From positions 1-49,047 of the forward strand of contig DFBT01000076.1 of NCBI GenBank assembly GCA_002366725.1: a stretch of DNA of 49,047 bases. The letters are read 5' to 3'. Source of the stretch: a candidate division WOR-3 bacterium UBA3073. GTDB lineage: Bacteria; Hydrothermota; UBA3073. A program made the position numbers and the translations under genes. Below are positions 21,735 to 37,227 of the stretch, one piece after another. The notes under the pieces were generated by a model. That model did not search any database. It had not been told where the DNA came from and saw nothing but the letters and a program-made list of their open reading frames with translations. Numbering within the stretch: the first letter of the stretch is position 1; every line of letters begins with the position of its first letter.

Positions 21735-21789
21735 AACACCTCCTTACCCAACGATATACAAAAACCACAGAGAATGGAATCGATCATTA

Positions 21790-24156
21790 CTACCCCATCA
21801 CTACAGAAACCTTATGTTCTCTACCATCGCTGAAGGCCGGGACTATACCTGTTTCAACTCTCTCTCCGTCCACGCGAATTTCTTTAATTCCACTGTTTAA
21901 ATGATCCGGGTTTTTGACCTCTATCTCATACACAGCACCCCTGAAGGGTCTCCTCATCCTGAATCCAGTCCATTTTTTGGGTATACATGGGTCGATAAGT
22001 AGACCCTCGTAGGCGGGACGGATTCCAAGTATCCACTCCGTTATGACTCTGAATAGCCAGGCTGCGGAACCCGTATACCATGACCAATTCCCCCTCCCAA
22101 AGTGAGGCGAATCTGGCCCAAAGACATCCCCGGGAAGTACATAAGGCTCGCACAAATAGATATCGGGATTACTCGCACAGTTAATTGGGGAGAGCTTCCT
22201 GTACATCTCATATGCCCTGTCCCCCCTGCCAAGTTTACATTCAGCCATTATAGCCCAGGTTGCGGCGTGGGTATACCTTCCACCGTTCTCTCGCGAACCC
22301 GGTGGATACCTCGTGAGATACCCTATATGCTCATCGGGAGATGAATAGGCTGGGAAGAGGAGAAGTGGACCATACTCTCGGTCGAGCAAATCCTCAACCG
22401 AAGCAATTACTATCTTTTTTCTCTTACCTTCGGCAACTCCGTTTATCACCGCCCAGGTCTGGGCATTCAGGAATATCTTCCCTTCCTTGCAGGTATTGCT
22501 ACCAACTTTAGTCCCGTCGTCTTTTGTCCCCCTTAAATACCATCTACCATCCCATGCGTATCTATTTATACTATCTTTTATCTCCTCTGCCTTCTTTCTA
22601 TAATTCTCGGCAAGTGGTCTGTCACGCATCTCAACTATTTTGGCAAACTCCCGTAGGATGCCGTACACAAAATGTCCTAACCAGATTGACTCTCCCTTCA
22701 TACCCCTTCCCATTCCATTCATACCATCATTCCAGTCTCCGTCTCCAACGAGAGGCAGCCCTCTGGGACTCATTCTCTCAAGCGCCTTATCTATTGCCCT
22801 ACAGCAATGAATATAGAGTGACTCATCTATCTCCTTATCCACATACCTTGCTTTCTCTTCCAGTATACTGAAGCCAGAAGTCTCTTTTAGATAGTTTATA
22901 ACAACATAAGGAAGCCACAAGAGGTCATCTGTCATATTTGTCCTCACACCAACTTCTGAGATATCATGCCACCAGTGATATACGGTTCCATCATAAAATT
23001 GATGGCGTGAATGGAGAAGTATCTGTTTTTTCGTCAAAGAGGGTTTTATGGGAAGAAATACCTGGCTATCCTGAAGTTGATCCCTGAATCCAAACCCACC
23101 CGATTGCTGGTAGTAACCCGCCCTTGCCCAAAGTCTCCCAGAGATTGTCTGATATTTAAGCCAGATATTTGCCAGGATGTTCAGTGAATCATCGGGTGTC
23201 ACTATCCATACCGTATCAAGATACGACCTCCAAAGCTCGCCTAATTCGTCAAATGCACCCTGGGTGCTTCTTTCGTCTTTATATTTATTTATCAAAAAGG
23301 CTGCTTCTTCTCTGTTCTCTGCCACTCCCAGTGTGAATATGATCGTCTCTTCCTTGCCGGGAGGAAGTACAATATCTATTTTTAAACTTGCAATTGGGTC
23401 AACCCATTTCCCTCCTCTATTCCCTATTTTATTTGTTTCAACGGCGATGGGGCTTTTCTCCGAACGATAGATGCCAATGAATGACTCCCTGTCGCAGTCA
23501 AAACCGCTCACCTGCTTACTTGCAGAGTGGAATGCAATATAATCCCAGGGGACACTTCTGTCTCTGCCGGGGACATCCCATAGAGTTGAGGTAGCAAATA
23601 TCGCATCGAGATTTGGGTCAAACGATGTCTCAATAAAAAGTTTGTGAAACTCCTTATGTGTATCCTGGGGAGGCCCCAGTCTCCATTCCAGATATGTAAA
23701 TATAGAAAGTGACCTCGTTCTATTAGAAGTGTTCTTGACCTTCAGCCTCCACAACTCCAAACTCTTATCAGGTGGGGTGAAGAGGAGGAGCTCGGTATCT
23801 ATCCCATAGTTTTTTGAATTTATGAGTGTGTAACCCACGCCGTGTCTGCATTCATACCTCTGGGGATTCTTGCAGACTGGTTTATAAGTTGCAGACCAGA
23901 CCTCGCCAGATTCATTATCTCTTATGTATATAAATTTACCGAGCTCGTCTTTCAAAAGGTCCTCCCTCCACGCCGTAAGTGCATTTAGATTTGAATCCTT
24001 ATACCAGCTGTAACCTCCCCCGGCCTGTGATATCATAAACGAGTACTCCCCGTTGGATATCACATTTATCCAGGGTCGCGGAGTATCGGGTCTTGTTATT
24101 ATGTATTCCCTTCCATCATCTGAAAAATATCCATATTTGTTCTTGAATCTTGCCAT
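21790..24156 (-). CDS. GH94 glycoside phosphorylase (cellobiose/cellodextrin/chitobiose/beta-1,2-oligoglucan phosphorylase family; specificity unresolved)
   Basis: 788 aa and colinear with cellobiose phosphorylases by eye: YGYFSDDGREYIITRPDTPRPWINV, GFGFRDQLQD, GLPLVGDGDWNDGMN (catalytic Asp region), YPPGSRENGGRYTHAATW, NWSWYTGSAAW. No signal peptide. GAGGAG SD. Confidence 0.9.
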   Translation of the reverse strand: MARFKNKYGYFSDDGREYIITRPDTPRPWINVISNGEYSFMISQAGGGYSWYKDSNLNALTAWREDLLKDELGKFIYIRDNESGEVWSATYKPVCKNPQRYECRHGVGYTLINSKNYGIDTELLLFTPPDKSLELWRLKVKNTSNRTRSLSIFTYLEWRLGPPQDTHKEFHKLFIETSFDPNLDAIFATSTLWDVPGRDRSVPWDYIAFHSASKQVSGFDCDRESFIGIYRSEKSPIAVETNKIGNRGGKWVDPIASLKIDIVLPPGKEETIIFTLGVAENREEAAFLINKYKDERSTQGAFDELGELWRSYLDTVWIVTPDDSLNILANIWLKYQTISGRLWARAGYYQQSGGFGFRDQLQDSQVFLPIKPSLTKKQILLHSRHQFYDGTVYHWWHDISEVGVRTNMTDDLLWLPYVVINYLKETSGFSILEEKARYVDKEIDESLYIHCCRAIDKALERMSPRGLPLVGDGDWNDGMNGMGRGMKGESIWLGHFVYGILREFAKIVEMRDRPLAENYRKKAEEIKDSINRYAWDGRWYLRGTKDDGTKVGSNTCKEGKIFLNAQTWAVINGVAEGKRKKIVIASVEDLLDREYGPLLLFPAYSSPDEHIGYLTRYPPGSRENGGRYTHAATWAIMAECKLGRGDRAYEMYRKLSPINCASNPDIYLCEPYVLPGDVFGPDSPHFGRGNWSWYTGSAAWLFRVITEWILGIRPAYEGLLIDPCIPKKWTGFRMRRPFRGAVYEIEVKNPDHLNSGIKEIRVDGERVETGIVPAFSDGREHKVSVVMG

Positions 24157-24157
24157 A

Positions 24158-24979
24158 TCAGCTCCTCATTCCCGTCAAGGCAATACCCTGTATAAAATAT
24201 CTCTGCATAAATACAAAAAGAAGGACAACCGGTGTTGTCACAACAACCGAACCCGCCATCAGGAGATTGTATTTTGTGGCATACTGTCCTGCATTAAGGT
24301 TTGCAAGTGCAACAGGAAGTGTATACATAGATTCGTGGGTCATAATGATAAGCGGCCAGAAAAAGTCATTCCATGTTCCCATAAATGTGAAAATTGCCAG
24401 CGCGGCAATCGCGGGCATACATAGTGGTAGGACAATACTTCTGTATATCCTGAATTCGGAACATCCGTCGATCCTTGCGGCATCAAGGAGTGAATCAGGT
24501 ATTGCTTGCATATACTGACGTAGAAGAAATATCCCAAATGCACTCGCCCCCGCTGGCAGGATTAACCCGAGATAGTTATTCAAAAGTCCAAGTCTCTTTA
24601 ATAAGAGGAACACCGGGATGGTTGTCACCTGTGCGGGCACCATCATTGTCACAAGAAATAAGACAAAGAGCCTCTGCCTGCCCGGAAACCTGAGTTTTGC
24701 AAAGGCATACCCTGAAAGGGAAGACAGAAATAGAACGAGTATTGTAACGGATACCGTGACTATTATACTATTCCTGAGGTGGACGGGAAATGCCATTCTT
24801 TGAAAGAGTTCCAGATAGGAACTGACAGTGGGATCTTCAGGTATCCACCTGGGTGGAAATGTGAATATGTTCTCCTGAGTTTTGAAGGATGAGATTGCCA
24901 TCCATGCAAACGGAGTGAGCGTCGCAATAAATGCAACTATCAGAATGACGTAGATGATAACCCGTCTAAAATCTCTCAT
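24158..24979 (-). CDS. carbohydrate ABC transporter permease (MalG-like)
   Basis: 273 aa, 6 TM, EAA-loop region LLDAARIDGCSEFRIYRSIVLPL. Confidence 0.9.
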   Translation of the reverse strand: MRDFRRVIIYVILIVAFIATLTPFAWMAISSFKTQENIFTFPPRWIPEDPTVSSYLELFQRMAFPVHLRNSIIVTVSVTILVLFLSSLSGYAFAKLRFPGRQRLFVLFLVTMMVPAQVTTIPVFLLLKRLGLLNNYLGLILPAGASAFGIFLLRQYMQAIPDSLLDAARIDGCSEFRIYRSIVLPLCMPAIAALAIFTFMGTWNDFFWPLIIMTHESMYTLPVALANLNAGQYATKYNLLMAGSVVVTTPVVLLFVFMQRYFIQGIALTGMRS

Positions 24980-24980
24980 A

Positions 24981-25850
24981 CTAATACTCCACAGTGTGTC
25001 TTATAAATCTCAACTGGAAGAGGCTGAATATGAAAATTATAAAAAACAGAACGTAGGCTATGGCAGATGCATATCCAAATCTGAAGAACTTAAATCCATT
25101 CTTATATAGATACAACACAATAGAAAGGGTGCTGTTTACGGGACCACCCTGGTTAGTCATAACATACGGCTCGGCAAATAACTGAAAATAACCTATGGTA
25201 GTTATGATACACACAAAAACCGTGGTGGGTTTTAACAAAGGGAGGGTTACATGAATAAAACTTCTAAAACTGTCTGCACCATCTACGGTGGCAGCCTCAT
25301 AGAAACGTCTCGGTATCGACTGCAGCCCGGCAAGAAATATCACCATACTGTATCCGAAGTTCCTCCATGTTGCCATCAGGATTATCGATGGCATCGCCCA
25401 CCTTGGGTCACCGAGCCAGTTTGGAGAAGATATTTTAAAAAGTTCAAAAAACCACTTTATTACCCCATATTGTGGATTGTAAAGCCAACGCCAGACCACC
25501 CCACAGGCAACGAGATTCGTCACCACGGGCAGGAAGAAGCCTGTCCTGAATAAGGTCTTTAACTTCACAAGACTGCTGTTTAAGAGGATTGCCGCCACAA
25601 GGCCAGAAAGAACAGAAAGCGGCATACCAACAAAGGTAAAATAAAGGGTGTTTTTCAGCGAACGCAAGAAGAGGGGGTCTCCTGCAAGTTCCACATAATT
25701 TCTAAATCCTACAAAGGATGCACCCCCGAGTCCCCAATCAGTAAGACTGGTGAAAAAAGCCACAATTATGGGTATGAAGCAGAAGACGAAGAAGAGCAAC
25801 AGACTGGGTGCTATAAAAAGAAAGGGAATACTATATCTCTTTATACTCAT
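24981..25850 (-). CDS. carbohydrate ABC transporter permease (MalF-like)
   Basis: 289 aa, 6 TM, EAA-loop region YEAATVDGADSFRSFIHVTLPLLKP. Its start overlaps the SBP stop (ATGA). Confidence 0.9.
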   Translation of the reverse strand: MSIKRYSIPFLFIAPSLLLFFVFCFIPIIVAFFTSLTDWGLGGASFVGFRNYVELAGDPLFLRSLKNTLYFTFVGMPLSVLSGLVAAILLNSSLVKLKTLFRTGFFLPVVTNLVACGVVWRWLYNPQYGVIKWFFELFKISSPNWLGDPRWAMPSIILMATWRNFGYSMVIFLAGLQSIPRRFYEAATVDGADSFRSFIHVTLPLLKPTTVFVCIITTIGYFQLFAEPYVMTNQGGPVNSTLSIVLYLYKNGFKFFRFGYASAIAYVLFFIIFIFSLFQLRFIRHTVEY

Positions 25851-27076
25851 CTTCTTGAAAGAATTTTCTTTACATCCCTCTGTAGAAACTCTAATGCCTC
25901 ATCCATACTCCTCTTTTTGTATATAACCTCCTCAAGATAGACCTCCATCTTATCTCTTATCTCTTCCCATTCGGGGATTGGAGGAGATGGCCTTGCATCC
26001 TCAAGTTGTTTTCCAAAGGCGGTGATTATGGGCACATTCAAGACATCTTGATCCCATGCCGCCTTTACAGCGGGAAGGTCGCCTGTAAGTTCAAACCATC
26101 TCGTCTGATTCTCTGTCCTTGACATATACTCAATAAACCTCCATGCTGCTTCTTTATTATTTGAGTTTTTAAAGATTGAGAGGTTGCACCCACCTATAAA
26201 GGATGTTCCGGTCTCCTTCTTTGGGAGAGTCGCGACTGCCCATCTTCCGTCAATCTCTGGGACCTGCTTGCTTAATAGCTCAATCATCCAGGGTCCACTT
26301 ATAAACATCGGCAGGAATCCAATTTTGAAGGCATGAAAAAGATCTATATCAGCAGTCCCTCCTAAGGGGGCAAGTCCCTCATCAAAAAAACTGTAGTAAA
26401 ACTCAAATGCCTCCCTTATCTTTGGGTCGTCAAAAGTAGGGTTGGTATAGTCGGGGGAAAGTATGTCTCCACCTGCCTGCCAGATAAATATAAGGAGAAT
26501 GAATGCATCGCTTGTGGGCAAGTTTATAGCATATCTCTCGGGAATTCCATCCCCATTAGTATCTCTTACAAGGCCGTGGCATAAGTACTTCATCTCCTCC
26601 CAGGAAGACGGTGGATGGTCGTAACCTACCTCCTTTAGTATATCCTTCCTGTAGAAGAGAACCCTTGTATCCACATACCAAGGTATACCATAGATGCTGC
26701 TGCCTATTATGTTTGTTCTCCAGGAGCCTTCAAAGAAGTTTCCCTCCTTTACCACATCTGACCCCTCTACATATCTGTCAAGGGAAGCGAGCGCATTCAT
26801 AGATGCAAATTCGGGAATCCAGGTTGTGCCCAGTTGACAGATGTCTGGTGTTGTGCCCCCTATAACAGAGGTCAAAAGCTTCATGTGTGCATCAGACCAC
26901 GGTATAGACTGGATTCTAATGGATATATCGGGATTTTCTTTCTCAAATAAGGCAATCACATCTTTTATCTTCTCCCCCTCAGCACCCATAACCCATATGG
27001 TCAATTTATCCCCATCTTTACCCTTGCAACCAGCCAGGGCAAAAAACACTATCAAAATCCACATATTATGTTTCAT
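25847..27076 (-). CDS. sugar ABC transporter substrate-binding lipoprotein (solute-binding family 1)
   Basis: I prefer the ATG at 27076 (MKHNMWILIVFFALAGCKG), which has a perfect LAGC lipobox. The length and W/Y-rich pattern are typical of oligosaccharide SBPs. Confidence 0.85.
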   Translation of the reverse strand: MKHNMWILIVFFALAGCKGKDGDKLTIWVMGAEGEKIKDVIALFEKENPDISIRIQSIPWSDAHMKLLTSVIGGTTPDICQLGTTWIPEFASMNALASLDRYVEGSDVVKEGNFFEGSWRTNIIGSSIYGIPWYVDTRVLFYRKDILKEVGYDHPPSSWEEMKYLCHGLVRDTNGDGIPERYAINLPTSDAFILLIFIWQAGGDILSPDYTNPTFDDPKIREAFEFYYSFFDEGLAPLGGTADIDLFHAFKIGFLPMFISGPWMIELLSKQVPEIDGRWAVATLPKKETGTSFIGGCNLSIFKNSNNKEAAWRFIEYMSRTENQTRWFELTGDLPAVKAAWDQDVLNVPIITAFGKQLEDARPSPPIPEWEEIRDKMEVYLEEVIYKKRSMDEALEFLQRDVKKILSRR

Positions 27077-27092
27077 ATCTTTCCTTTTCTTT

Positions 27093-27121
27093 TTATATAC
27101 AAGGAACTCCGACCTTCGCAA
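27093..27121 (-). promoter_or_regulatory. candidate internal promoter for the ABC/GH94 sub-operon (TTGCGA-17-ATATAA with TGn)
   Basis: The reverse strand reads TTGCGA aggtcggagttccttgt ATATAA, 17 nt before the SBP start codon. Confidence 0.35.
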
Positions 27122-27222
27122 GGAGAAGGATAAATAAGCTAATCTAATTGCCAACTATCACGAAAAATCAGTCTGACCAGTAATTTATTGCTAATTTAAT
27201 ATTGCTATTATGTACAATTCAC

Positions 27223-28236
27223 TTAAAATTCAAATGAGAGAGACAACCTCTTTGCATTCTGTAGTCTGCCAAAATCCGCATAGGCAACGTCCAGTTTCAC
27301 TGCATAACTTCCAAAACGATGCCTTATGCCGCCTCCAAGAGTGAGTCCCCCTTCGCTATCCTTTAGAAAGAGAGACGAATATCCTGCACGCAGTGAAATC
27401 CTCTTATGGAAGATGTACTCGATACCCAGGTCTATGCTCTCTGTATTATCATTTGGGTGTTTTGCATCGATCGCCAATGTGAGAGTATTACTCTCGTTCC
27501 CTATAACATCCAAAGATATCCCCACCCTGAACATAAGAGGCAGTGACCACCTATCAGTGTGTAAGTCAGCAATTATTCTATCATTATCCCCGAAAAAGTC
27601 GGGGTTGAAATCGTAATATACCAGAATATCCCTTCCGCTGTACCCAATCTTCCCTCCAAAATTTAATATGCTCATACCTATCTTCATATCGTTGAAATCT
27701 GTCTCAAATAGCGTCCCCACATCCACCGCAAAGGTTGATGCACTCATATGCCATATCCTCTGATTTATATACTTCAGGTTAATTCCCACAGAGAATCTGT
27801 CTGTCAGACACCTTGCATAAGACAGTCCAAGAGCAAGGTCTCCTGCAGCAAACATCTCCCCAGTTCCTTCTGAATTTTCTACCGTTCTTACCTTCATCTC
27901 AGGCATTGATAGGGAAGTGACACCCACACCGATATTTCCCCAGCGTGGTGTACAGATGATCACGCCCGCGAAGTCAAAACGCAAACCTGCCAGCCAGCTT
28001 GTATGAATAACTACTGCCTCATTCTTGCTCAATCTCGATACACCGGCTGGATTCCAGTATATAGCAGTTGCATCGTCAGCCACAGCTACAAATGCACCGC
28101 CCATACCAACTGCCCTGGCACCCACGCCTATCTTCAAGAACTGCGCAGCGGTCGTCCCCACCTTAGAAACACCGAACTGTGAGTAGAGAAAGCCAGGCAC
28201 AAATAACAGCACGAGATATGCAAAAAATTTCTTCAT
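27223..28236 (-). CDS. PorV/PorQ-like (FadL-superfamily) outer-membrane beta-barrel, copy 1
   Basis: ATG at 28236 overlaps the stop of the upstream 1080-aa gene (ATGA). Signal MKKFFAYLVLLFVPGFLYSQ. Motif GTTAAQFLKIGVGARAVGMGGAFVAVADDATAIYWNPAG. C-terminus SLSFEF. The track's N-terminal extension to 28344 is an artefact. Confidence 0.7.
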   Translation of the reverse strand: MKKFFAYLVLLFVPGFLYSQFGVSKVGTTAAQFLKIGVGARAVGMGGAFVAVADDATAIYWNPAGVSRLSKNEAVVIHTSWLAGLRFDFAGVIICTPRWGNIGVGVTSLSMPEMKVRTVENSEGTGEMFAAGDLALGLSYARCLTDRFSVGINLKYINQRIWHMSASTFAVDVGTLFETDFNDMKIGMSILNFGGKIGYSGRDILVYYDFNPDFFGDNDRIIADLHTDRWSLPLMFRVGISLDVIGNESNTLTLAIDAKHPNDNTESIDLGIEYIFHKRISLRAGYSSLFLKDSEGGLTLGGGIRHRFGSYAVKLDVAYADFGRLQNAKRLSLSFEF

Positions 28237-31200
28237 TTTATAATGGCAAATCTGCCAATCTTTTCGCCTATGCCAGGCGCGTCTACGTGATATATGTATA
28301 TACCAGGCGCTATATCCATACCGTCTTTTGAGACAAGGCCCCATGGTTCTTCCCCATTGTCTATAAACGAGTCGTGTTCTATCACTTTTACAAGCTCACC
28401 CGATACAGTGTATATACGTATAGTAGCTCTTTGAGGAAGATGAATGAAGTATATCCTTCGTTCGCCCCTCCCCGATGCAAGGATCCTCCGTGGTTCCCAT
28501 TCTGCGGCTGCGCAGTAGGGATTAGGCACCACCGCAATTCTATCCAGGTCACTCCGGGCAAGGGCTTCTTCAATATAAGCTGAATTCGTCTTAATATCGA
28601 ATACATCTCCACTTCTGAAAGGCATATCAATTGCTATATATGCCCAATCACCTCTGATCGGATTTACTGTTGAGTCGACACCCGGTTCAAAGAATTTTAC
28701 CCTCCATGCCCTCTCCCAGTGATCGTCCACCCAAAGCCATATATCTATGTAATCTCCGGCATTTAGCAGGCTGTCTACCTCGCCCGGCGGTTCCCAGAGA
28801 TAGTATCTGACCTTTTGACTATCTATAACATCCCATACCGTGAAGTTCGTAGGATACTGTGGATTGGAGTAGAGGTAAGATGTATCTATACCGAAGGTGT
28901 CAATCCTTATCTCGTAACTTGTAGGAAAACCGGGGCGTCTATAAGGAGAACTGTACAACTGGTCAACATTTATGAGTAGATTACAATCTCCTTCTACCCA
29001 ACCTGTTAGGGAATCATTCCAGGCAACGGTGTCGTCCCTGACCTGCAATCTCATTCCATCGGATACTGGATTGAAGTCCTCTCCCTCTACATAAGTGGAA
29101 GTGAAAAGCAGTGAATCGCCACCAAGGTCATAGAATGAATATATCGTTGTATCCTGGTGAGTTGTGTCATCGAATACAATCCTGTAAGCGTTCTCCTTCA
29201 CCAGGAGTGGATCCATGACATCTATCCATATATCTCCTGTCCCATGCCCTTTTGTATGTTCTATATCTACCTGCGCATTCTTATATCCTGCTGCCGGTGA
29301 ACGCGGTGTAGCCACCACTGTATTTTTATCGAGTGTAACATTCCCCACAACATCCATCTTGATAACCTTTGTACATTCTGATGGGAGCATGCCGGCCTCT
29401 GCCCATCCTCTGTCATACGATACTACTGCGTAATAGTATGTCTGCCCATTTTTCACATCGTAATCGGCATATGAGTGCTTTAATCCAGTGTTATCACCCA
29501 TATAGTATTGAACACCGTTAACGTCTATCGGGAAAAATCCAGACACATCATTTTTAATATCGAACTGTGCAAGTGGGTCATATAGAACGGGGTTGCCCTG
29601 TCCGTCTGTGATGGTATAGCAGTCGTTGAATGCAGGGTCTGTGCTCCTGTATATTCTGTAACCCTCAAAGTCTCTCCATCCATATGCTCCAGGCTCACAA
29701 CCGATAGAATCGGCAAATACATCCTCTGAGTATTCCGCCGCATCGTCCCAGTAGAGGGTAACTTTACCATCTCCTGCAACTGCCCGTAGCTCAGGCTTGT
29801 CCGGAGGTCTTGCAAAGTTATAATTTGCATTATATATCTTTTGCACTACCTCTACATTTCTCCTTAAGTCCTCGAGGTCGTTTCCGAATACGAGAGCAAG
29901 TGAAAATCTCTCAGTCTTTCCAGGGGGTAATGGGAAAGGCCCGGAACCGTAGAGGAATGCAGTATTGCCAGGATACTGCTCTCCAATGTCAAAGTGATAG
30001 TATGCAATCCTTTCCCATATAACGTCATCGAATCGATATTCAACGCCATGTCCAATGTAGAAACGGTCAAAGGCTGTGAGGCCTATCTGGTCGGATTCGT
30101 CCTTGTCGGTCTCATCAAAGTGCGGTTCACCAGGTGATGGTATGCCGTCTCCTTCTCCCCGGTCACCGGTCCCGGGGACACCATCTGCACCAACATCATC
30201 TGTCTCCCGATTCCAGTCAGAGTCGTTGTCTATCCCGTCATCCCTTGCTTCATCTATTAAAAGATTATTTAGACCTCCTCCAGTAATCCAATCCTTATAT
30301 TTAAGACCGGTGTGTATATCCTCATTTTCATCTATAAGCCCATTAAGGTTATCATCCATACCATTCCAGTCAATCTCGACCAACACCTCGTCTGGCATTA
30401 TCCTATCTAAGATTCCACGGTGCTGTATAACAAGACCTGTATCAGGCATAGATACAACACTACGCTTATATGTATCGTAATCTATTAATACACACTGTTC
30501 TCCTGCTGAAAAACTTCCGGGAAGGGAGACACCAGCGTCAATTACAGGCCCAGGACAATCTCTACCGTCACCATCGTCGTCTATCCCGTTGTATGGATTA
30601 CCGGGACTTTCGAGAAACGCATAACCCGCATATCCTGTTTCCCAACCACCCTGTCCGGTACCATCTGGGTCCCAGGAATATGTTATATCCATCTCGGTGT
30701 CGTAGAAGGCATTGTCATCGTTTGAATCATCCGGTCCGCCAACACCACAGTCTACATACATACCAAATGCAACCTCGTCATAGTGTGTAGTTGATATATT
30801 AGTTATATCATAGTGCCAGAATATCAGGTCTTCTGCCAGAACATTGGACCACTGGAATCCCCTTACCTCGACCCTCATTCCAAGTCCACCCCTTGAGGAG
30901 TCATACATATCACAGTAGAACTTCTCACGGAATGCTGCTCCGTGATCACAATAGTCATCCATAACAAAGTAACTCTCCTGGTCTGCGTTCGTTCTCTTAC
31001 CAAAATATCCGTTCCAACTGCCAGGCCAACCAGGGTCGTCGGGCTCGTTCATTTTGTCAGGCCAGGAAGCTGGCCATGAATCAGGGTCATCACTCATCGC
31101 AATCTTGTCCTCATATGGGTTTGAATAACCAGAAATAGGTTGCCATCCATATTCAACACCTGTTATGGGGTCTTCCTCGTAGTGTTCCCGATAGCCTGCC

Positions 31201-31475
31201 TCAACTATATGTATAGTATCACCCTCCGAGAGTACCACCTCCGCTGCAACTATTGGTGTTATACCGTCCATATAAGAATGATCAGTTCCCCTTGGCCAGA
31301 CCCCTGATGGGTGTTTTCTCCACCAGGCGACCTCTCCAAAATTCCAGAAGAGGGTCTCCACAAGATTGCCGTTGTGAAGTCCCCGTTTTCTATATTTCCT
31401 GTCACCATGCTCTTCAACAGAGGGCACATCGAGCGCCATCAAAATACCTATTATGATAAGTATTAGCCTATTCAT
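28233..31475 (-). CDS. ~1080-aa secreted protein of unknown function with acidic Ca-loop clusters, an Fn3-like module and a divergent C-terminal sorting-like domain (paralog A)
   Basis: - I prefer the ATG at 31475 (MNRLILIIIGILMAL), with GGAG upstream; the track start at 31547 is TTG.
- Acidic clusters GIDDDGDGRD, DDNLNGLIDENED and DDGIDNDSDWNRETDDVGADGVPGTGDRGEGDGIPSPGEPHFDETDKDESDQ.
- Fn3-like PPDKPELRAVAGDGKVTLYWDD...FEGYRIYRS.
- C-terminus VVPNPY...IRIYTVSGELV...GIYIYHV...GRFAIIK. Confidence 0.8.
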   Translation of the reverse strand: MNRLILIIIGILMALDVPSVEEHGDRKYRKRGLHNGNLVETLFWNFGEVAWWRKHPSGVWPRGTDHSYMDGITPIVAAEVVLSEGDTIHIVEAGYREHYEEDPITGVEYGWQPISGYSNPYEDKIAMSDDPDSWPASWPDKMNEPDDPGWPGSWNGYFGKRTNADQESYFVMDDYCDHGAAFREKFYCDMYDSSRGGLGMRVEVRGFQWSNVLAEDLIFWHYDITNISTTHYDEVAFGMYVDCGVGGPDDSNDDNAFYDTEMDITYSWDPDGTGQGGWETGYAGYAFLESPGNPYNGIDDDGDGRDCPGPVIDAGVSLPGSFSAGEQCVLIDYDTYKRSVVSMPDTGLVIQHRGILDRIMPDEVLVEIDWNGMDDNLNGLIDENEDIHTGLKYKDWITGGGLNNLLIDEARDDGIDNDSDWNRETDDVGADGVPGTGDRGEGDGIPSPGEPHFDETDKDESDQIGLTAFDRFYIGHGVEYRFDDVIWERIAYYHFDIGEQYPGNTAFLYGSGPFPLPPGKTERFSLALVFGNDLEDLRRNVEVVQKIYNANYNFARPPDKPELRAVAGDGKVTLYWDDAAEYSEDVFADSIGCEPGAYGWRDFEGYRIYRSTDPAFNDCYTITDGQGNPVLYDPLAQFDIKNDVSGFFPIDVNGVQYYMGDNTGLKHSYADYDVKNGQTYYYAVVSYDRGWAEAGMLPSECTKVIKMDVVGNVTLDKNTVVATPRSPAAGYKNAQVDIEHTKGHGTGDIWIDVMDPLLVKENAYRIVFDDTTHQDTTIYSFYDLGGDSLLFTSTYVEGEDFNPVSDGMRLQVRDDTVAWNDSLTGWVEGDCNLLINVDQLYSSPYRRPGFPTSYEIRIDTFGIDTSYLYSNPQYPTNFTVWDVIDSQKVRYYLWEPPGEVDSLLNAGDYIDIWLWVDDHWERAWRVKFFEPGVDSTVNPIRGDWAYIAIDMPFRSGDVFDIKTNSAYIEEALARSDLDRIAVVPNPYCAAAEWEPRRILASGRGERRIYFIHLPQRATIRIYTVSGELVKVIEHDSFIDNGEEPWGLVSKDGMDIAPGIYIYHVDAPGIGEKIGRFAIIK

Positions 31476-31543: not shown

Positions 31544-34198
31544 TCAAAATCTACATGATAGACCTATCTCTACCTTCCTCGGTTCAGAATAGAACTCAGG
31601 TCTGTTCAGAAAATCCTCCAATGTATTTGGACCCTTAACCTCGCTTGTATAATGTGGAATAAGTGAATAGCTTGCCCTTCCTGTGTCGAGATAAACATCC
31701 TCTTCGTTCTTTCTATCGAAGAGATTGTTAACCAAAAGGTTTATTGAAAATATCCCATTAAACAGAGTAAAATCTCTGTGTGCCTTAAGGTCAAATGAAT
31801 AAGTTTCGGGCTTTCTCTCACTGTTCTCAAAGCCAAGGCGTATATTCTGGTATTCAGAGGTATATGGAAACCCACTACCATATCTTCCTATAATCGAGAT
31901 ACCTCCTATATCAGGTTTACCAATATTTAAGGTAAAATTAATAGTATGCGTCTGATCCCAATCTAAAGGCACAACCTGTATCTCACTTTCTCTTGGTGGC
32001 TCACTCTGCTGGTCATAAAATATCGCGTTTGGATCTGAGGCATTTCCTTCCGCTACCTGATAGGTATAGTCGAGGTAAGTAGTGATAAAACCAATAGGCC
32101 GGGTCTTGAGTGAAACAGTAACACCCCTGACATTCCCGTAATCACGATTTACATACCTTGCATATCTATCACCCATTATATAAAGCTCATATATGGCAGT
32201 TCCTACAAGGTTTCTTATATCCTTATAATATGCAGTTAAATCCACTCCAACTAAATCGCCAAACTGTTGCTGGATTCCATACTCATATATGGTCGTCTTC
32301 TGGGGTTCCAGGTCAGCATTGCCCATAAGTGACTTGAGTTCCCCTCCCATCACCTCAAACTCTGGGTTATGATAGAGATACTGAAAAGGAGGAATCTGGA
32401 AGAAATGACCATAGGAAAAGTGAAGAACACCCCTCTCTGTTATTGGGAATGCTATTCCAAGTCGAGGACTTATCTGATGTTTTACACTTGCCTCCCTGTA
32501 CCACACATCCCTCTGCCAGTAAGAGTTGTTCGGGTCCCTTGGGTCGAGTGGAACTATACCGTCGGGGTAAAAATAGTCGTACCTGAATCCTGCGTTTACT
32601 ATCAAATTATTAAACTCCATCTTGTCCTGGATGTAAAAAGCAGCCTCTATAGGGTCGTGTGTGTATCTATTATGTCTCGTTGAGGAGATAGGATAGGGTC
32701 TGGGCTTCCAATCAGTGGTCTCGTCCAGTTGCAACTCAAATTCTTCTAAAGAAAGGGCGTGTCTCCTTGCCTCCAGTCCGCATTTAACCTGATGAGTTCC
32801 AGTTATCTGGGAAGTGATATCAAAATTCCCTGATACGCTTTTTGAAACCCGGTAGTAGTGGTTCATATCACACCCACCTGTATAGAATGCATATGCATTT
32901 CGATTCAATCTTCTGGGATCAACATATCTTTTGTCGAGCGTATCCTCATACACATAGGACTTATAATCTTTTGCACTACTAGCTAACCTCACATTAAAGA
33001 AGGTTCTTGCACCGACAGCCTGCGTGAATGTGAGAAGGTGCATACAGGATTTCTCATACTCTGTAGGGGCTCCATCAGGATCATATTTGAAGAGATGCCA
33101 GTAGGTTCTTTTTTTAAGGTTACCCAACATAAATCCGTATCTGAGTTTTGAGTTGGGGAGGATTTGATATGAAAGGTTGCCGTAAAAAAATTTCTTTTCT
33201 TCTGGATTCATCGGGACGTAACTACTGTCACCCGTGGTCTCAACATACCACTCTGATGGGTCCCCTGACTCAAATTTTGAGGAGTCAGATGGATTGAATA
33301 TTCTCTTGCTATATAACCATCCTCCATTTTTATATAGCCTCGTAGATAAGAAAAAATTTATTCTTTCACCTATTGGTCCGCTTAGGGTTGCCTCTACATT
33401 ATGGTTGCTCAAAGGTTCAAAATGGTGAATATGCTGGAATGTCTCCTCGTGGGTTGAGATGTAATCTCCCGTCCATGTTGATATTTCACCAGAGGGGTTT
33501 CTCCCTCCCTCTTTTGTTACAATGTTAACTACACCCGACATAGCCTTACCGTACTCAGCATTGAATGTCCCACTCACTACCTTCATCTCCTGCACAATGC
33601 TGTTCTCTACCTCCATCATCATCTCTCCAGAGAATGGATCGGTGACAGATACGCCATCTATCATATATACAATCTCGTCAGACCTACCACCCCTGATGTG
33701 GATTTCACCACCACTTCCAACAGTCACTCCTGCCTGTAGTTTTAGAAGATCTTTAAAGCTACCAACGGGCATCTCTTTTATATCCTCGGAACCTAATGTG
33801 GCCTCCGATGAGGTGAGGTCCATTTGTATCAGGGATTTTTCTGCCACAACCGTGATGCCTTCGCCTTCGATAATGGTGGGTTTCAATTTGAAGTCGAGCC
33901 CTGTAGTGAGGTCTGACGACACTTTAACATCCATCACTTGCCTGGCCTCGTATCCTATCATAGATGCCGTGATGGAATACTCACCCGGAGGGACATTCAG
34001 AATGATATAGTTGCCATCAATATCTGTGGCAGCACCCAGCCTGGTGTTTTCTATCACCACATTTACTCCAGACAGCGGTTCGTGTGACTGAAGATCGGTA
34101 ATCCTACCCACTACCTTTCCTGTGACCCCCGCCGAGAGTGTGCTATATAAAGCTATTTGCAGTAGAAATACACCCTTTATGATGGATGAGCCACTCAT
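31544..34198 (-). CDS. TonB-dependent receptor with N-terminal carboxypeptidase-regulatory-like domain, copy 1
   Basis: 884 aa. GKVVGRITD...GVNVVIENTRLGAATDIDGNYIILNVPPGEYSITASMIGY (CarboxypepD_reg-like). TonB-box-like GITVVAEK. Plug IHIRGGRSDEIVYMIDGVSVTDP. Long barrel ending GLSCRF. Confidence 0.85.
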   Translation of the reverse strand: MSGSSIIKGVFLLQIALYSTLSAGVTGKVVGRITDLQSHEPLSGVNVVIENTRLGAATDIDGNYIILNVPPGEYSITASMIGYEARQVMDVKVSSDLTTGLDFKLKPTIIEGEGITVVAEKSLIQMDLTSSEATLGSEDIKEMPVGSFKDLLKLQAGVTVGSGGEIHIRGGRSDEIVYMIDGVSVTDPFSGEMMMEVENSIVQEMKVVSGTFNAEYGKAMSGVVNIVTKEGGRNPSGEISTWTGDYISTHEETFQHIHHFEPLSNHNVEATLSGPIGERINFFLSTRLYKNGGWLYSKRIFNPSDSSKFESGDPSEWYVETTGDSSYVPMNPEEKKFFYGNLSYQILPNSKLRYGFMLGNLKKRTYWHLFKYDPDGAPTEYEKSCMHLLTFTQAVGARTFFNVRLASSAKDYKSYVYEDTLDKRYVDPRRLNRNAYAFYTGGCDMNHYYRVSKSVSGNFDITSQITGTHQVKCGLEARRHALSLEEFELQLDETTDWKPRPYPISSTRHNRYTHDPIEAAFYIQDKMEFNNLIVNAGFRYDYFYPDGIVPLDPRDPNNSYWQRDVWYREASVKHQISPRLGIAFPITERGVLHFSYGHFFQIPPFQYLYHNPEFEVMGGELKSLMGNADLEPQKTTIYEYGIQQQFGDLVGVDLTAYYKDIRNLVGTAIYELYIMGDRYARYVNRDYGNVRGVTVSLKTRPIGFITTYLDYTYQVAEGNASDPNAIFYDQQSEPPRESEIQVVPLDWDQTHTINFTLNIGKPDIGGISIIGRYGSGFPYTSEYQNIRLGFENSERKPETYSFDLKAHRDFTLFNGIFSINLLVNNLFDRKNEEDVYLDTGRASYSLIPHYTSEVKGPNTLEDFLNRPEFYSEPRKVEIGLSCRF

Positions 34199-34228: not shown

Positions 34229-36052
34229 CTATCTTACAAGCAACATCCTGCGTGTTTCGCTAAACCCCTCAGCCTTTATACGATAAAAATAAACACCATT
34301 GGCAACCTTCATGTTACCATCCGTGGTGCCATCCCAGTAGACTGTGTGAATTCCTGCTTCCACATTACCTTCTACCAGTGTCTTTACTACCTGCCCCGTC
34401 AGGCTGTAGACCTTGAGCACAGTATGTGTTTTTCTTGGGAGTTCGTATCTTATTGCGGTCGTCCTGCTGAAGGGATTAGGATAGTTCTGACGGAGCATAC
34501 ATACCTTTGGCCCGGATTCATCTTCCGCTATACCCACTTCTGGTGATAGATATACCTGTCTGTACATATAGTATTTATCGAAGTTTATATCAGCCCACTC
34601 GCATCCCCACCAGGACTTTACATAATCGGAGGTATGCTCATCGAATACATCCCAGGATGAATGGTCCATATCCCATATAACCGGGGCCATCCACACTGAA
34701 TCACCATCCACATATCCCCACATATCTGTATGCAGAACAAGTTCAAGAGAGTAGCCGTGGTCTGGGCCGCATCCGCCAGTATCGGCATGTGTTACAGTTC
34801 CAGGAGGTTCATAGGATTTTCCCTCTACTGCACCACTTGGCACAGATGCACTCAACTCAAGCTTGGCAGTATCCCCAACCACATTGCCGAAGTACATAAG
34901 TTTTACCTCGTGCCTCTCCCCGGGACCTGGTATAACCCAGGGGTCCCTCATCCACAGGAAGAGACCGTCCGCCTCCCAGCCCGGTCCCCACTCACACACA
35001 GAGGAGTCATCCGATACGATCCCAAGGTAAAGGTCTGTACCATCGTGCAGGAATTTGATCGTTGCAGTGCTTGGATCATCCCATTCGTTTAGTGTATCAC
35101 CCCACTGCATCCAATACCAACCAGTCGCTCCCTGACTACCCTTGCCGATGGTCATTGCGGTAGCGTTTTCCCATACATCTTCACTGAGTTGACCGTCTAT
35201 AGTAATACCCTTATCCTCTGGTATCTGGTAGGCATCTACAGTTGTTAGGTCACCGAGTAATAGACACCTCAATTCAGTTCCCCACTCACTCCCCCACCAG
35301 CTCTTGAAATAGTCACAGAGGTCGGGATCGGGAGCTGTCGCATGCTCCGGGACATAAAAGTCCATATCGAATATCATCATAGAGAGCCATACGGAATCAT
35401 ACGGTTCATAAGTGGGATCGAGTATATCAAGGTGAATCACCATCTCAAGTGTATAACCAGAGTCAGGTGCTGTGTTGTCGTTTGTTATAGTACCGGGGAA
35501 TTCGTAGGATGCCCCTTCACCGGAACCTTCAGGACCGTTCATCTCAAATCGAGCGGAGTCACCAACCCCTTCGTTTACATAGAAGAGTTTATACTCAAAT
35601 AGTGCACCACTTTCCCTCATCTTGACCTTCATAAAGAGGCCATCGCCTTCCCATCCGGGGAAACGCTTGCAGACTGATTCGTCGTCCGATTGGAGAGCTA
35701 TATACAGGTCTGTCCCATGATGGAGGAATTTAACAATCGCGGTGGATGTATCAGTGTAACCATCATTCCCATCACCGTTTGCGTCCGGCACTATGTCGCT
35801 TGGTGGATATTCCCAGTTTGTGACTCCAAAGCCAGCATCAACTGGGGTATAGCCGGGTCCGAAGCCCAGATCAAAGAAGTGTCTATCCCAATGGAGCGTA
35901 TCACCCAAATCGAGTCTTCCATCTATCGTTAACTCCTCTGCGGGGTCTCTGCTCATTACCTGCATAGATTGAGGGTCCATATGCCCAACACCAGTGGCTA
36001 TCTGGGCAATCAGAAGAACGGCGCTGCCCACAATTATCCACTTATTCTTCAT
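34229..36052 (-). CDS. secreted protein with two tandem CBM9/DOMON-like modules and a T9SS type-A-like CTD
   Basis: ATG at 36052 follows AAGGAGGTG. There is an internal duplication: ..KFLHHGTDLYIALQSDDESVC..GWEGDGLF..DYFKSWWGSEWG versus ..KFLHDGTDLYLGIVSDDSSVC..GWEADGLF..DYVKSWWGCEWA. C-terminus NYPNPFSRTTAIRYELP...VYSLTGQVV...GVYFYRI...RMLLVR. Confidence 0.75.
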   Translation of the reverse strand: MKNKWIIVGSAVLLIAQIATGVGHMDPQSMQVMSRDPAEELTIDGRLDLGDTLHWDRHFFDLGFGPGYTPVDAGFGVTNWEYPPSDIVPDANGDGNDGYTDTSTAIVKFLHHGTDLYIALQSDDESVCKRFPGWEGDGLFMKVKMRESGALFEYKLFYVNEGVGDSARFEMNGPEGSGEGASYEFPGTITNDNTAPDSGYTLEMVIHLDILDPTYEPYDSVWLSMMIFDMDFYVPEHATAPDPDLCDYFKSWWGSEWGTELRCLLLGDLTTVDAYQIPEDKGITIDGQLSEDVWENATAMTIGKGSQGATGWYWMQWGDTLNEWDDPSTATIKFLHDGTDLYLGIVSDDSSVCEWGPGWEADGLFLWMRDPWVIPGPGERHEVKLMYFGNVVGDTAKLELSASVPSGAVEGKSYEPPGTVTHADTGGCGPDHGYSLELVLHTDMWGYVDGDSVWMAPVIWDMDHSSWDVFDEHTSDYVKSWWGCEWADINFDKYYMYRQVYLSPEVGIAEDESGPKVCMLRQNYPNPFSRTTAIRYELPRKTHTVLKVYSLTGQVVKTLVEGNVEAGIHTVYWDGTTDGNMKVANGVYFYRIKAEGFSETRRMLLVR

Positions 36053-36155
36053 GCCTTTCACCTCCTTTCAAAAATTTCTCTACGGGGATTCAGGAGATCG
36101 TACCTGCTCTTTAACCCCTGTTTCACGCAAGACACTTCAGGAGAACCCGCCATTA

Positions 36156-37151: not shown

Positions 37152-37165
37152 TCTTTCTCTCCTTG

Positions 37166-37179
37166 TGGAATCGGTTTCA
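37166..37179. promoter_or_regulatory. LacI-family operator candidate O1 (cre-like pseudo-palindrome)
   Basis: The plus strand reads TGGAATCGGTTTCA, with one mismatch to TGWAANCGNTNWCA. It sits in the lacI-like 5' UTR, 15 nt upstream of the ATG. Confidence 0.5.
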
Positions 37180-37209
37180 TAAAATATAGTTCTAGTCAAC
37201 TATTCTTGA

Positions 37210-37223
37210 TGAAATCGGTTTCA
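37210..37223. promoter_or_regulatory. LacI-family operator candidate O2 (cre-like pseudo-palindrome)
   Basis: TGAAATCGGTTTCA fits TGWAANCGNTNWCA exactly. The 16-mer ATGAAATCGGTTTCAT has arms ATGAAA/TTTCAT. It lies 4 nt downstream of the -10 box, so it overlaps the predicted TSS. Confidence 0.55.
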
Positions 37224-37227
37224 TTAT

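Follow-up and report, generated by a model that had tools for sequence, protein, structure and literature searches.

The systems that most resemble the locus described here are the SusC/SusD (RagA/RagB) pairs of Bacteroidota, together with their surface glycan-binding proteins; there, the gene of a TonB-dependent transporter with a CarboxypepD_reg-type N-terminal domain directly precedes that of a large exported protein, its partner. The polysaccharide utilisation loci of Bacteroidota also occur as multiple paralogous cassettes per genome, each with its own catabolic set and regulator. [quoted passage not shown] PorZ keeps its C-terminal domain, which is bound to PorQ, and shielding by cognate PorV-like barrels was proposed to spare such domains from cleavage; this retained-domain anchoring model is already published for PorZ-PorQ (PMC10202324). 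Non-SusD lids have been proposed in Bacteroides (Price, Deutschbauer and Arkin, bioRxiv 2023), each an unrelated protein encoded beside a non-SusC transporter and proposed to lie on its outer face. The present locus resembles these systems, and also differs from them.

The window is a stretch of 49,047 nt (positions 1 to 49,047) of contig DFBT01000076.1 (assembly GCA_002366725.1) of the candidate division WOR-3 bacterium UBA3073 (Hydrothermota). The earlier note had reported two paralogous large proteins, and both minus-strand ORFs are present: protein A (28233..31475, 1080 aa), the focus of this study, which was analysed through its translation, AF2 model and conservation profile, and its paralogue B (42226..45531, 1101 aa), which is 41% identical to A in an end-to-end alignment. 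The ORF of A extends to a TTG at 31547, with the ATG at 31475, the choice of the earlier note, as an alternative start; the ATG was preferred because the signal peptide is then like that of the homologues (MNRLILIIIGILMAL..) and because the interval from 31547 to 31475 contains a stable hairpin. Protein A comprises a signal peptide (residues ~1-21), an N-terminal beta core (25-295 and 466-560) with an acidic insert (296-465), an Fn3-like module (561-721), a variable double beta-sandwich (722-968) and a T9SS-type C-terminal domain (969-1080). The AF2 model of A has a pLDDT of 74.9, and the predicted models are almost all beta. Neither whole protein matched Pfam or NCBIfam, the separate protein segments had no Pfam match at E<=5, and the PDB, searched by sequence and profile with A and B, gave no substantial match, in agreement with the earlier observation that no hydrolase, lyase or peptidase domain is recognisable. 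Many homologues were found outside the source genome, which makes this a real family and not a lineage-specific oddity. The family is very large (1,575 clusters at 50% identity with E<=1e-30) and unnamed, and no earlier description of this ~1100-residue family was found in the literature.

Proteins A and B are each encoded within a tight three-gene cassette in the order TonB-dependent receptor, large protein, PorV/PorQ-family barrel, which the earlier note had missed. The receptor of cassette A (31544..34198, minus strand, 884 aa; PF00593, PF13715 and PF07715) has a CarboxypepD_reg N-terminal domain, a Plug and a beta-barrel. Its assignment to the SusC family was rejected, as it scored 70 bits to the SusC/RagA model TIGR04056 against a cutoff of 368, and in this the transporter differs from SusC. 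The receptor of cassette B (45570..48332, minus strand, 920-aa ORF) is 51% identical to it. The outer-membrane barrels of cassette A (27223..28236, minus strand) and cassette B (41189..42211, minus strand, 340 aa in the public gene call) are 58% identical, and matched NF033709 PorV_fam with 230 and 223 bits, respectively (cutoff 90); whereas both fell under the PorV, PorQ and PorV2 equivalog cutoffs, so that, unlike in the known pairs, only the general family model is passed. In cassette A the stop codon of the large gene and the ATG of the barrel gene overlap (ATGA), a translational coupling comparable to known T9SS cargo-barrel pairs. In cassette B the barrel starts 14 nt past the stop codon, after an AGGAGG (Shine-Dalgarno) motif.

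The synteny was assessed at 80 loci of species-representative genomes; these bear at least eight different lineage labels, among them Neomarinimicrobiota, Calditrichota, Ignavibacteria, KSB1 and Rhodothermales. The receptor is directly upstream of the large gene in 74 of the 75 assessable loci, and the PorV-like barrel directly downstream in 69/74. The complete ordered triad was found in 64 of 69 loci, and four of the five exceptions retain all three genes; the triad was also seen in loci retrieved by exact protein look-up. A gene of this family nearly always has a TonB-dependent transporter gene on one side and a PorV-like barrel gene on the other, and this near-invariant cassette is the main clue to the function of the large protein. 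Coupling to a TonB-dependent transporter sets the large protein and its barrel apart from every known cargo-barrel pair. Conserved synteny would equally be expected if the three proteins act in sequence without contact. In the two loci with permuted gene order, a SurA-like gene follows in place of catabolic genes.

The large proteins have Sec signal peptides, and a lipobox was matched in just 1 of 35 sequences. Unlike SusD, they are all-beta, run to ~1100 residues, do not match SusD in Pfam and lack a lipoprotein signal. The C-terminal domain of A (residues 969-1080 and stop codon; 28233..28571, minus strand) is family-specific; it starts with VVPNPY, ends with FAIIK, and contains a conserved insertion of ~20 residues (AAxWEPxRxxxSGRGERxIxFIHLP). 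It is 66% identical between A and B, and its mean column identity is 70%. Comparison by hhalign with four canonical T9SS C-terminal domains of the window gave a probability of 95.9% (E 5.7e-9), over only the last ~57 columns of the domain. Weak matches were obtained to CHU_C (13/16 members), FlgD_ig (8/16) and Por_Secre_tail (4/16), and the domain is below the curated threshold of every T9SS sorting-domain model; these low scores and the insertion distinguish it from the known pairs. The C-terminal end is predicted as a beta-sandwich, with Foldseek matches that include PorZ and PorU. Judged from these comparisons, it is a divergent yet highly conserved T9SS-type sorting domain, a character that had escaped the earlier note. 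The C-terminal domain (median identity 57%) and the barrel (47%) are the slowest-evolving parts of the cassette. The T9SS-type tail and the protein's own PorV-like barrel have no counterpart in SusC/SusD; the Bacteroides non-SusD lids are lipoproteins, whereas the large protein would be secreted via the T9SS and has a barrel of its own.

The catabolic and uptake genes downstream of cassette A (17591..27154, minus strand, assigned by Pfam) encode an ABC sugar-binding protein (25847-27154), two permeases (24158-25850), a GH94 phosphorylase (21790-24156), a T9SS-tailed PF10091 'glycoamylase' that also has CBM30 (19017-21734), and another PF10091 protein (17591-18913). This gene set also flanks cross-phylum homologues of A. 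Between the two cassettes (34229..41017, minus strand, Pfam/NCBIfam), 34229-36061 encodes a 610-aa protein whose T9SS tail is its only recognisable domain, 36156-37199 a LacI-family regulator, and 37436-41017 a T9SS-tailed DNRLRE-domain protein of 1193 aa; in GH94-type loci, the 610-aa protein and the regulator are again found upstream of the receptor. The LacI regulator, GH94, PF10091 proteins and ABC importer are comparable to the regulator and catabolic set of a Bacteroidota locus, and several paralogous cassettes occur per genome, each adjoining different catabolic genes. All loci scoring >1050 bits to A have GH94 or its companion 610-aa T9SS protein, the latter being taken where the flank ends before the GH94 position (L016, L061); B-like loci have the ABC importer and lack GH94. 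Other subfamilies adjoin amylase, GH16+malectin, GH10, GHL10 or starch-binding modules, and, unlike SusC/SusD loci, some adjoin GlpD-like, GDPD and PhoD genes in organophosphate-type loci. Subfamily identity tracks the neighbouring catabolic genes. No SusD-family gene was found in seven distinct annotated loci, and susCD genes were reported to be scarce in the CAZyme clusters of Ignavibacteriales (PMC10576277). Melioribacter roseus has a sus operon (PMC3534657); some lineages carrying the family therefore also have SusC/D, and the cassette is not simply a SusD replacement.

The variable region (residues 722-968 of A; 28572..29312, minus strand) consists of two confidently predicted beta-sandwiches (most 10-residue blocks have a pLDDT of ~90 or more, range 81-94), and is the fastest-evolving part of the protein. 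Its poor conservation had been noticed before and is confirmed: A and B share 27% identity in it, compared with 49-56% over the N-terminal regions and the Fn3-like module, and its median identity across 64 loci is 27%, where the N-terminal core has 47% and the C-terminal domain 57%. Hypervariability between close relatives was not borne out, since P0002, the sole 81-82%-identical relative in the alignment, has 74% identity in the variable region and 86% in the N-terminal core. The earlier note had also proposed a ligand-binding surface. The tracking of catabolic genes by subfamilies fits, without proving, a specificity-determining surface of this kind; whereas the term 'glycan-binding' is too narrow for the whole family, because some subfamilies are found in organophosphate-type loci. 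The earlier interpretation is partly supported, and the variable region is a candidate specificity determinant.

The best explanation, with a probability of roughly 0.6, is that the large protein is a T9SS-exported, surface-held substrate-capture partner of the adjacent TonB-dependent transporter, in mostly SusD-lacking bacteria. It is best read as functionally analogous to SusD and to the glycan-binding surface proteins of Bacteroidota loci, without being homologous to them. The existence and domain architecture of the family, its near-invariant cassette, its T9SS-type C-terminal domain and the match between subfamilies and neighbouring genes are shown here, whereas we infer that the protein lies at the surface, is kept on the barrel, touches the transporter and binds a ligand, in the following way. 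The protein, with a plain signal peptide and not as a lipoprotein, would cross the inner membrane via Sec, and the T9SS would carry it over the outer membrane by means of the divergent C-terminal domain. This domain would remain uncleaved and stay on the dedicated PorV/PorQ-like barrel encoded downstream, so that the protein is held at the surface; PorZ on PorQ and type-B cargo on PorP/SprF-like barrels are precedents. Beside its transporter, it would catch the substrate and pass it on. The N-terminal beta-supersandwich and the acidic insert, probably stabilised by Ca2+, would form a constant scaffold, and specificity would come from the fast-evolving double beta-sandwich. Cassette A would serve a locus of the beta-glucan type, with the GH94 phosphorylase, the glucanase-like PF10091 proteins and the ABC importer for sugars, and cassette B a second locus with other T9SS-tailed proteins.

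It is unlikely that the large protein instead serves the transporter-barrel complex as a structural lid or as an assembly factor, with no substrate binding of its own, such as a cap gating the transporter, or a scaffold docking the T9SS-secreted enzymes of the locus via Ca2+-dependent dockerin-like acidic loops. The acidic insert of A (residues 296-465; 30081..30590, minus strand) has D-x-D-x-D-G-type loops and the invariant TDKDESDQIGLT island; its D+E content is 25%, and D+N+G 39%. It is mostly of low confidence in the AF2 model (pLDDT <50 at residues 300-318, 377-412 and 437-462), had no Pfam match at E<=5, and is a putative Ca2+-binding or interaction region. Every motif string quoted in the earlier note is present: RGFQWSNVLAEDLIFWHYDITN in A and its counterpart RGFQWSHVLAEDCIFWHFAITN in B in the conserved N-terminal region, the acidic loops GIDDDGDGRD, DDGIDNDSDW and GADGVPGTGDRGEGDGIP in A, the near-invariant island (GEPHFDETDKDESDQIGLT in A, GEPNFDQTDKDESDQIGLT in B), and GDGKVTLYWDD...FEGYRIYRST in A with a counterpart in B. 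The motifs exceed what chance would give: in the 35-sequence alignment, T456, D457, E460, S461, D462, Q463, I464, G465 and L466 of the island are all invariant, as are many acidic and glycine positions (D427, G429, D431, G432, D438, G440 and E441). The constancy of the N-terminal core and acidic loops across subfamilies, and the near-invariant pairing with the transporter, would suit a lid or assembly factor. Moreover, non-SusD lids were proposed for other TonB-dependent transporters (bioRxiv 10.1101/2023.03.17.533168), and in the BamG-BamH structure a PorV-like barrel holds a surface protein in an outer-membrane complex (PMC12578637). However, such a role leaves unexplained the ~250 residues that evolve fast and in step with the locus content. 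The dockerin and thrombospondin models gave no match, so the thrombospondin-type-3 or dockerin-like label given earlier is a motif resemblance, and no cohesin-like partner was identified. The 'Fn3' label of residues 561-721 likewise reflects motif resemblance and the predicted fold, and no model confirmed it.

Substrate capture is also favoured over a surface enzyme of an unrecognised class (glycanase, lyase or esterase), a rather improbable role in which a metal-dependent active site is formed by the N-terminal core and the acidic island, and the transporter merely imports the products. In these two regions, the most conserved part of the protein, the numerous invariant residues (D, E, S, H and W) could form an unrecognised active site, and T9SS-secreted enzymes abound in the neighbouring loci. 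The N-terminal fold also resembles a domain of glycoside hydrolases and phosphorylases. In Foldseek, this core matches dextran dextrinase and the GH116, GH94 and GH149 enzymes solely in their non-catalytic supersandwich (E from 2e-5 to 1e-2, with a probability of up to 1.0 and a query-normalised TM-score of ~0.3). The best match is 9ju0 (E 2e-5, probability 1.0), followed by 5o0s, 8ho7, 3rrs, 1v7v and 6hq8; these matches are low in TM-score and come from an N-terminal-only model of modest quality (pLDDT 60.7). Unlike those enzymes, the large protein lacks the catalytic (alpha/alpha)6 barrel, and its core has no sequence-level relationship to them. No catalytic family model matches, and dedicated enzymes are already encoded in the loci. 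The conserved core is common to subfamilies adjoining beta-glucan, alpha-glucan, xylan and organophosphate genes, which argues against one substrate-specific chemistry.

It is very improbable that the large protein acts as an adhesin, as an S-layer-like surface protein or as an accessory component of the T9SS, with an incidental or regulatory linkage to the transporter, because the transporter is directly upstream in 74/75 loci and paralogous cassettes beside differing catabolic genes are a pattern of nutrient uptake and not of machinery or adhesins, although the protein is a multi-beta-sandwich with Fn3-like matches and its T9SS-type tail and cognate PorV-like barrel recall the gliding adhesins with SprF-like barrels (PMC10202324). 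The structure prediction and Foldseek search that the earlier note had suggested matched the N-terminal core to the GH94/GH116-type supersandwich; for the whole chain the top match was PorZ, in favour of an adhesin or T9SS component, though with a TM-score of only 0.10.

Almost all genes of the window lie on the minus strand, including those encoding the two large paralogous proteins, A (28233-31475, 1080 residues) and B (42226-45531, 1101 residues), which align from end to end with 41% identity. The open reading frame of A spans 28233-31547, with a TTG at its upstream end; the ATG at 31475 chosen in the earlier note is the better start, since the protein then begins with MNRLILIIIGILMAL.. and its signal peptide aligns with those of the homologues. 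Every motif quoted in that note is present in the translated paralogues, and the island described there as nearly invariant is borne out: T456, D457 and E460-L466, together with the D and G positions of the acidic loops, are invariant in a 35-sequence alignment (A1). The reported lack of a recognisable catalytic signature also holds, with no Pfam or NCBIfam match for either protein at E<=0.01, and no Pfam match at E<=5 when both proteins were cut into segments; the single exception in these searches was a match of the C-terminus of B to PorU (13.8 bits). A profile search of the PDB with the family gave no match; the sole PDB match of the single-sequence search, 3f9u (22 bits), was spurious.

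The supposition that A and B represent a family, and not an oddity of one lineage, was sustained. At least 4,482 relatives were found by a word-indexed search, among which none has a functional name or a precomputed Pfam domain; the name of one partial entry (P0118) refers to nothing but a T9SS sorting domain. A profile search of 1.84 billion cluster representatives returned 9,273 sequences at E<=1e-3, 4,943 at E<=1e-10 and 1,575 at E<=1e-30. In contigs sampled at one genome per species, at least 554 loci encode a family member, and 80 of these were kept for synteny analysis. They carry the labels Neomarinimicrobiota, Calditrichota, Ignavibacteria/Melioribacteraceae, KSB1, Kryptonium, Rhodothermales, Eisenbacteria, Stahlbacteria and various 'Bacteroidota' MAG labels; the family also occurs in MAGs with the labels Ignavibacterium album and Caldithrix sp. 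The window itself corresponds to contig NOZQ01000051.1 of assembly GCA_002245405.1. Several genomes have more than one of the three-gene cassettes described below, with two in the window, two in a 3.0-Mb contig (P0082, P0150) and two in the chromosome OZ245730.1.

Both genes stand in the middle of a three-gene cassette on the minus strand, composed of a TonB-dependent receptor, the big protein and a barrel of the PorV/PorQ family (cassette A: receptor 31544-34198, barrel 27223-28236; cassette B: receptor 45570-48332, barrel 41189-42211). The ORFs of the 80 loci were searched with three proteins of the window: receptor, big protein and barrel. The receptor gene was located immediately upstream on the same strand in 74 of 75 assessable loci. 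The barrel gene followed directly in 69 of 74 and stood at another place in the locus in a further four, and the complete ordered triad was found in 64 of 69. Of the five exceptions, two loci (L044 and L048) have the barrel gene between those of the receptor and the big protein, one has a split gene, one has an inserted gene, and one lacks a barrel in the available 1.4 kb. In both L044 and L048, the next gene encodes a SurA-like PPIase and catabolic genes do not follow. Loci obtained by exact protein look-up showed the same gene arrangement, and no SusD-family gene was present in them. At the junction in cassette A, the TGA of the big gene is overlapped by the ATG of the barrel gene (ATGA); the junction in cassette B is a 14-nt spacer with an AGGAGG motif inside. 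The divergence of the three cassette proteins is correlated (Spearman 0.5-0.6); this was set aside as evidence of contact, because co-inheritance alone predicts it.

Between the TTG at 31547 and the start of A at 31475 lies a stable hairpin (31513-31534, minus strand) in the spacer that follows the receptor gene. It is terminator-like, with a 9-bp stem containing six G-C pairs and an A/T-rich tail, and the 71-nt spacer folds at -23.3 kcal/mol (z = -2.5). As a possible attenuator, it might limit read-through from the receptor gene. Only 2 of 75 related loci have a perfect stem of at least 8 bp behind this gene, and the hairpin was therefore taken as a local feature and dropped as a trait of the family.

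Both receptors contain a CarboxypepD_reg N-terminal domain, a Plug domain and generic TonB-dependent receptor barrel domains. They could not be classified as SusC/RagA transporters, as their TIGR04056 scores (70 and 29 bits) were far below the cutoff of 368 and covered only the N-terminal ~205 positions. The barrels passed the PorV_fam model NF033709 (230 bits for A and 223 for B; cutoff 90) and also matched the Pfam PorV model; both missed the cutoffs of the PorV, PorQ and PorV2 equivalog models. The big protein is not a member of the SusD/RagB family either: the Pfam SusD_RagB and SusD-like models were unmatched, A and B lack a lipobox, and the AF2 models are almost wholly β-strand, whereas SusD/RagB proteins have an α-helical TPR-like fold. 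The only feature shared with SusD is the position of the gene directly downstream of a TonB-dependent transporter (74/75), which indicates an analogy to SusD and not membership.

The domain layout of A was derived from the full-length AF2 model (pLDDT 74.9, pTM 0.66) and the conservation profile. A signal peptide (residues ~1-21) is followed by an N-terminal β core (25-295 and 466-560), which is interrupted by an acidic insert (296-465); after these come an Fn3-like sandwich (561-721), a variable region of two β-sandwiches (722-968) and a C-terminal β-sandwich (969-1080). The variable region was predicted with a pLDDT of ~90 or more in most 10-residue blocks; model confidence was mostly low in the acidic insert, which contains an optional small β subdomain gapped in 40-60% of the sequences. 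The [DN]x[DN]x[DN]G loops, two in A and three in B, have acidic positions that are invariant throughout the family and are putative Ca2+ sites. The label thrombospondin type 3 or dockerin, suggested for them earlier, gained no support, as the inserts of A and B alone gave no match to TSP_3 or Dockerin_1 at E<=5.

No structural match explained the whole protein: Foldseek with the whole chain returned generic Fn3/Ig-like strings together with PorZ and PorU, and no query-normalised TM-score exceeded 0.17. The N-terminal half obtained no useful assignment in this way, and so residues 22-562 were modelled separately. The best match of this model (541 residues, pLDDT 60.7, below that of the full-length model) was the dextran dextrinase 9ju0 (E 2e-5, probability 1.0, query-normalised TM-score 0.31), followed by GH116, GH94 phosphorylases and GH149. 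These structures share an N-terminal β-supersandwich, which the predicted N-terminal core of A may resemble; the assignment is provisional owing to the lower confidence of the model. Both models are almost wholly β, and thus the (α/α)6 catalytic barrel has no counterpart in A. An enzyme of the GH94, GH116, GH149 or GH15-like type was rejected: only the accessory β domain was matched, the helical domain is absent in both models, and no family HMM matched.

The C-terminal domain is the best-conserved part of the big protein, with 70% mean column identity. It starts with VVPNPY, similar to T9SS sorting domains, ends with FAIIK, and contains a family-specific insertion of ~20 residues (AAxWEPxRxxxSGRGERxIxFIHLP). 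The isolated domains reached no curated threshold for T9SS sorting domains (TIGR04183, TIGR04131/CHU_C); weaker matches below threshold were obtained to CHU_C in 13 of 16 members (best E 0.0018), FlgD_ig in 8 (0.0014) and Por_Secre_tail in 4 (0.02). Profile comparison by hhalign with the four canonical T9SS tails of the window gave a probability of 95.9% (E 5.7e-9), with the alignment confined to the last ~57 columns. The predicted β-sandwich of residues 981-1078 has a pLDDT of ~90, and PorZ and PorU are among the Foldseek matches of the whole chain. The signal peptides are of the Sec type, and a lipobox pattern occurs in 1 of the 35 aligned members, which is neither A nor B; apart from the T9SS tail, no route to the cell surface is thus visible. 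No T9SS core genes (SprA/Sov, PorKLMN) are located in the window; as four other proteins encoded there have canonical T9SS tails, the source organism very probably has a T9SS. The signal peptides of most members in A1 end in ..AQ, so that cleavage would expose an N-terminal glutamine. This recalls the 'Q-rule' that is reported for Bacteroidetes substrates of signal peptidase I (PMC5837995).

Sequence divergence is unevenly distributed along the cassette. Between A and B, the identity is 51% for the receptor, 41% for the whole big protein and 58% for the barrel; the medians against the proteins of cassette A over 64 complete cassettes are 41%, 39% and 47%, respectively. Within the big protein, the N-terminal core (53% and 49% for its two segments; median 47%), the Fn3-like module (55%) and the C-terminal domain (66%; median 57%) are much better conserved than residues 722-968 (27%; median 27%), which corroborates the poorly conserved stretch noticed before the C-terminal domain. 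Conservation in the cassette is highest in the C-terminal domain and the barrel, which lends indirect support to the proposed retention of this domain on the barrel.

The neighbouring genes change with the family member. Among loci whose protein scores above 1050 bits to A, GH94 is present in every one across organism labels, except L016 and L061, where the flanks end early and show only the homologue of a 610-residue T9SS protein. The GH94 loci usually also hold a PF10091 protein (PF10091 is the 'glycoamylase' Pfam family), a LacI regulator and a homologue of the 610-residue protein. In the window, the region 17591-24156 (minus strand) encodes a GH94 phosphorylase and two PF10091 proteins, one of which has CBM30, Fn3 and a T9SS tail; directly upstream, the same gene run includes an ABC sugar importer (24158-27154). 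This GH94/PF10091/ABC set recurs across phyla beside A-type cassettes, and cassette A belongs to a β-glucan-type locus. Judging by the GH94 and PF10091/GH144 enzymes, its substrate is probably β-1,2-glucan, and loci of this kind probably serve β-1,2-glucan or sophoro-oligosaccharides. The 610-residue protein (34229-36061, minus strand) has a canonical T9SS tail and a body without a recognisable domain (scan at E<=5). Loci of the GH94/PF10091 type with several organism labels repeatedly encode a homologue just upstream of the receptor, and the protein may be a further uncharacterised component of this locus type.

GH94 is missing from the loci of B-like proteins, in which an ABC importer comes next. 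Directly downstream of cassette B is a gene for a 1193-residue protein (37436-41017, minus strand) with an N-terminal DNRLRE domain (NF033679, 76 bits), a T9SS tail and a faint CBM96 match in public records. Other members adjoin GH13/GH57 amylase and CBM20, or GH16 with malectin, GH10, GHL10 and starch-binding CBM20/48/53 proteins with T9SS tails. In L088-L090 (P0270, P0150, P0376), GlpD-like FAD dehydrogenases adjoin the cassette, and one locus or another contains GDPD (glycerophosphodiesterase), PhoD, a phosphodiesterase, an MFS transporter and LTD/Laminin_G T9SS proteins. This suggests that the subfamily serves the uptake of organophosphate or phosphodiester compounds, not glycans.

We propose, with a probability of roughly 60%, that the big protein is exported by the T9SS, held on its cognate PorV-like barrel next to its transporter, and captures the substrate there. 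Everything in this proposal past the three genes being encoded together is inferred, from the SusC/SusD-like pattern and from the precedents of PorZ-PorQ, PorU-PorV and the BAM complex for a protein held by a barrel. By analogy, the retained C-terminal domain would stay uncleaved and bound to the barrel. The constant N-terminal core with the acidic insert might act as a scaffold or interface, and the variable β-sandwiches might be the specificity element. The part of the proposal that makes the big protein a surface partner of the transporter deserves greater confidence than the whole; that the variable region binds the ligand deserves less.

A non-binding lid, or a scaffold on which enzymes dock, is an unlikely description of the big protein. 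That it represents a new kind of surface enzyme is quite unlikely: the same conserved core occurs beside chemically unrelated pathways and a catalytic domain is absent, both of which weaken this explanation. An adhesin or a component of the secretion machinery is highly improbable in view of the transporter linkage and the paralogue pattern. Going beyond the substrate-capturing surface partner, we tentatively consider that the cassette could be a distinct machine for uptake across the outer membrane that is widespread in the FCB superphylum. In this machine, the T9SS instead of lipoprotein export would mount the capture subunit, and the barrel would be a permanent structural subunit stapling it to the transporter. 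Such a stable three-protein complex would be an independently evolved analogue of the SusCD utilisome, and the acidic loops could also dock the T9SS-secreted enzymes of the locus.

The cassette combines features of two known kinds of system. Like SusC/SusD, it pairs a transporter with an exported partner, is multiplied within genomes and has diversified together with adjacent catabolic genes. Like PorZ-PorQ, PorU-PorV and SprB-SprF, it has a barrel of the PorV/PorQ/PorP family as the partner, and as in such cargo-barrel pairs the genes are adjacent and co-inherited. PorQ holds PorZ, whose C-terminal domain is retained, and PorV holds PorU; cognate PorV-like barrels were proposed to shield such domains from cleavage (PMC10202324). 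In the BAM complex of Bacteroidota, a PorV-like barrel holds a surface protein inside an outer-membrane complex (PMC12578637). The xylan locus Rmar_1070-1072 of Rhodothermus marinus consists of a receptor, a hypothetical protein with a Por tail and another hypothetical protein (PMC6987092); compared by description only, it resembles the cassette in layout and is a candidate relative. When a Rhodothermales member served as the query, all entries returned were unnamed or 'hypothetical', and none was labelled R. marinus. Neither the cassette nor the family was found described in the full-text literature searched, whose coverage leaves out most subscription journals, so that a prior description may exist. 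As proposed, the cassette would be an uptake system of transporter and partner that works on the principle of T9SS cargo and cognate barrel, built around a large protein family missing from the model libraries.

The SusC/SusD pair is the mark by which polysaccharide utilisation loci are identified and listed in catalogues. Lineages such as Ignavibacteria, Kapabacteria, Calditrichota and Marinimicrobia have many secreted CAZymes and few or no susCD genes, which are scarce in the CAZyme clusters of Ignavibacteriales and absent in Kapabacteria (PMC10576277); product uptake in these CAZyme-rich groups is therefore puzzling. The cassette could fill this gap in Ignavibacteriales and Kapabacteria. 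It occurs in hundreds of species genomes, beside GH94 and PF10091, GH16, GH10, amylase or organophosphate genes, and would provide a sequence marker to find and delimit such loci in these phyla. A very large 'hypothetical' family absent from Pfam would thereby gain a proposed role, and a new use is suggested for PorV-like barrels, namely mounting the partner of a transporter on the cell surface.

Two further genes of the window, both on the minus strand, are unusual. The gene at 4829-6310 encodes an apparent fusion of a phosphomethylpyrimidine kinase (ThiD-like, PF08543) and a class I methyltransferase, and adjoins a TenA/THI-4 gene; an Rfam scan over the window found no family, the TPP riboswitch included. 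The 649-residue ORF at 14719-16668 matches the 116-kDa subunit family of V-type ATPases with its C-terminal ~90 residues (E 1e-13), and adjoins the OmpH and LpxD genes, an odd neighbourhood for such a match.
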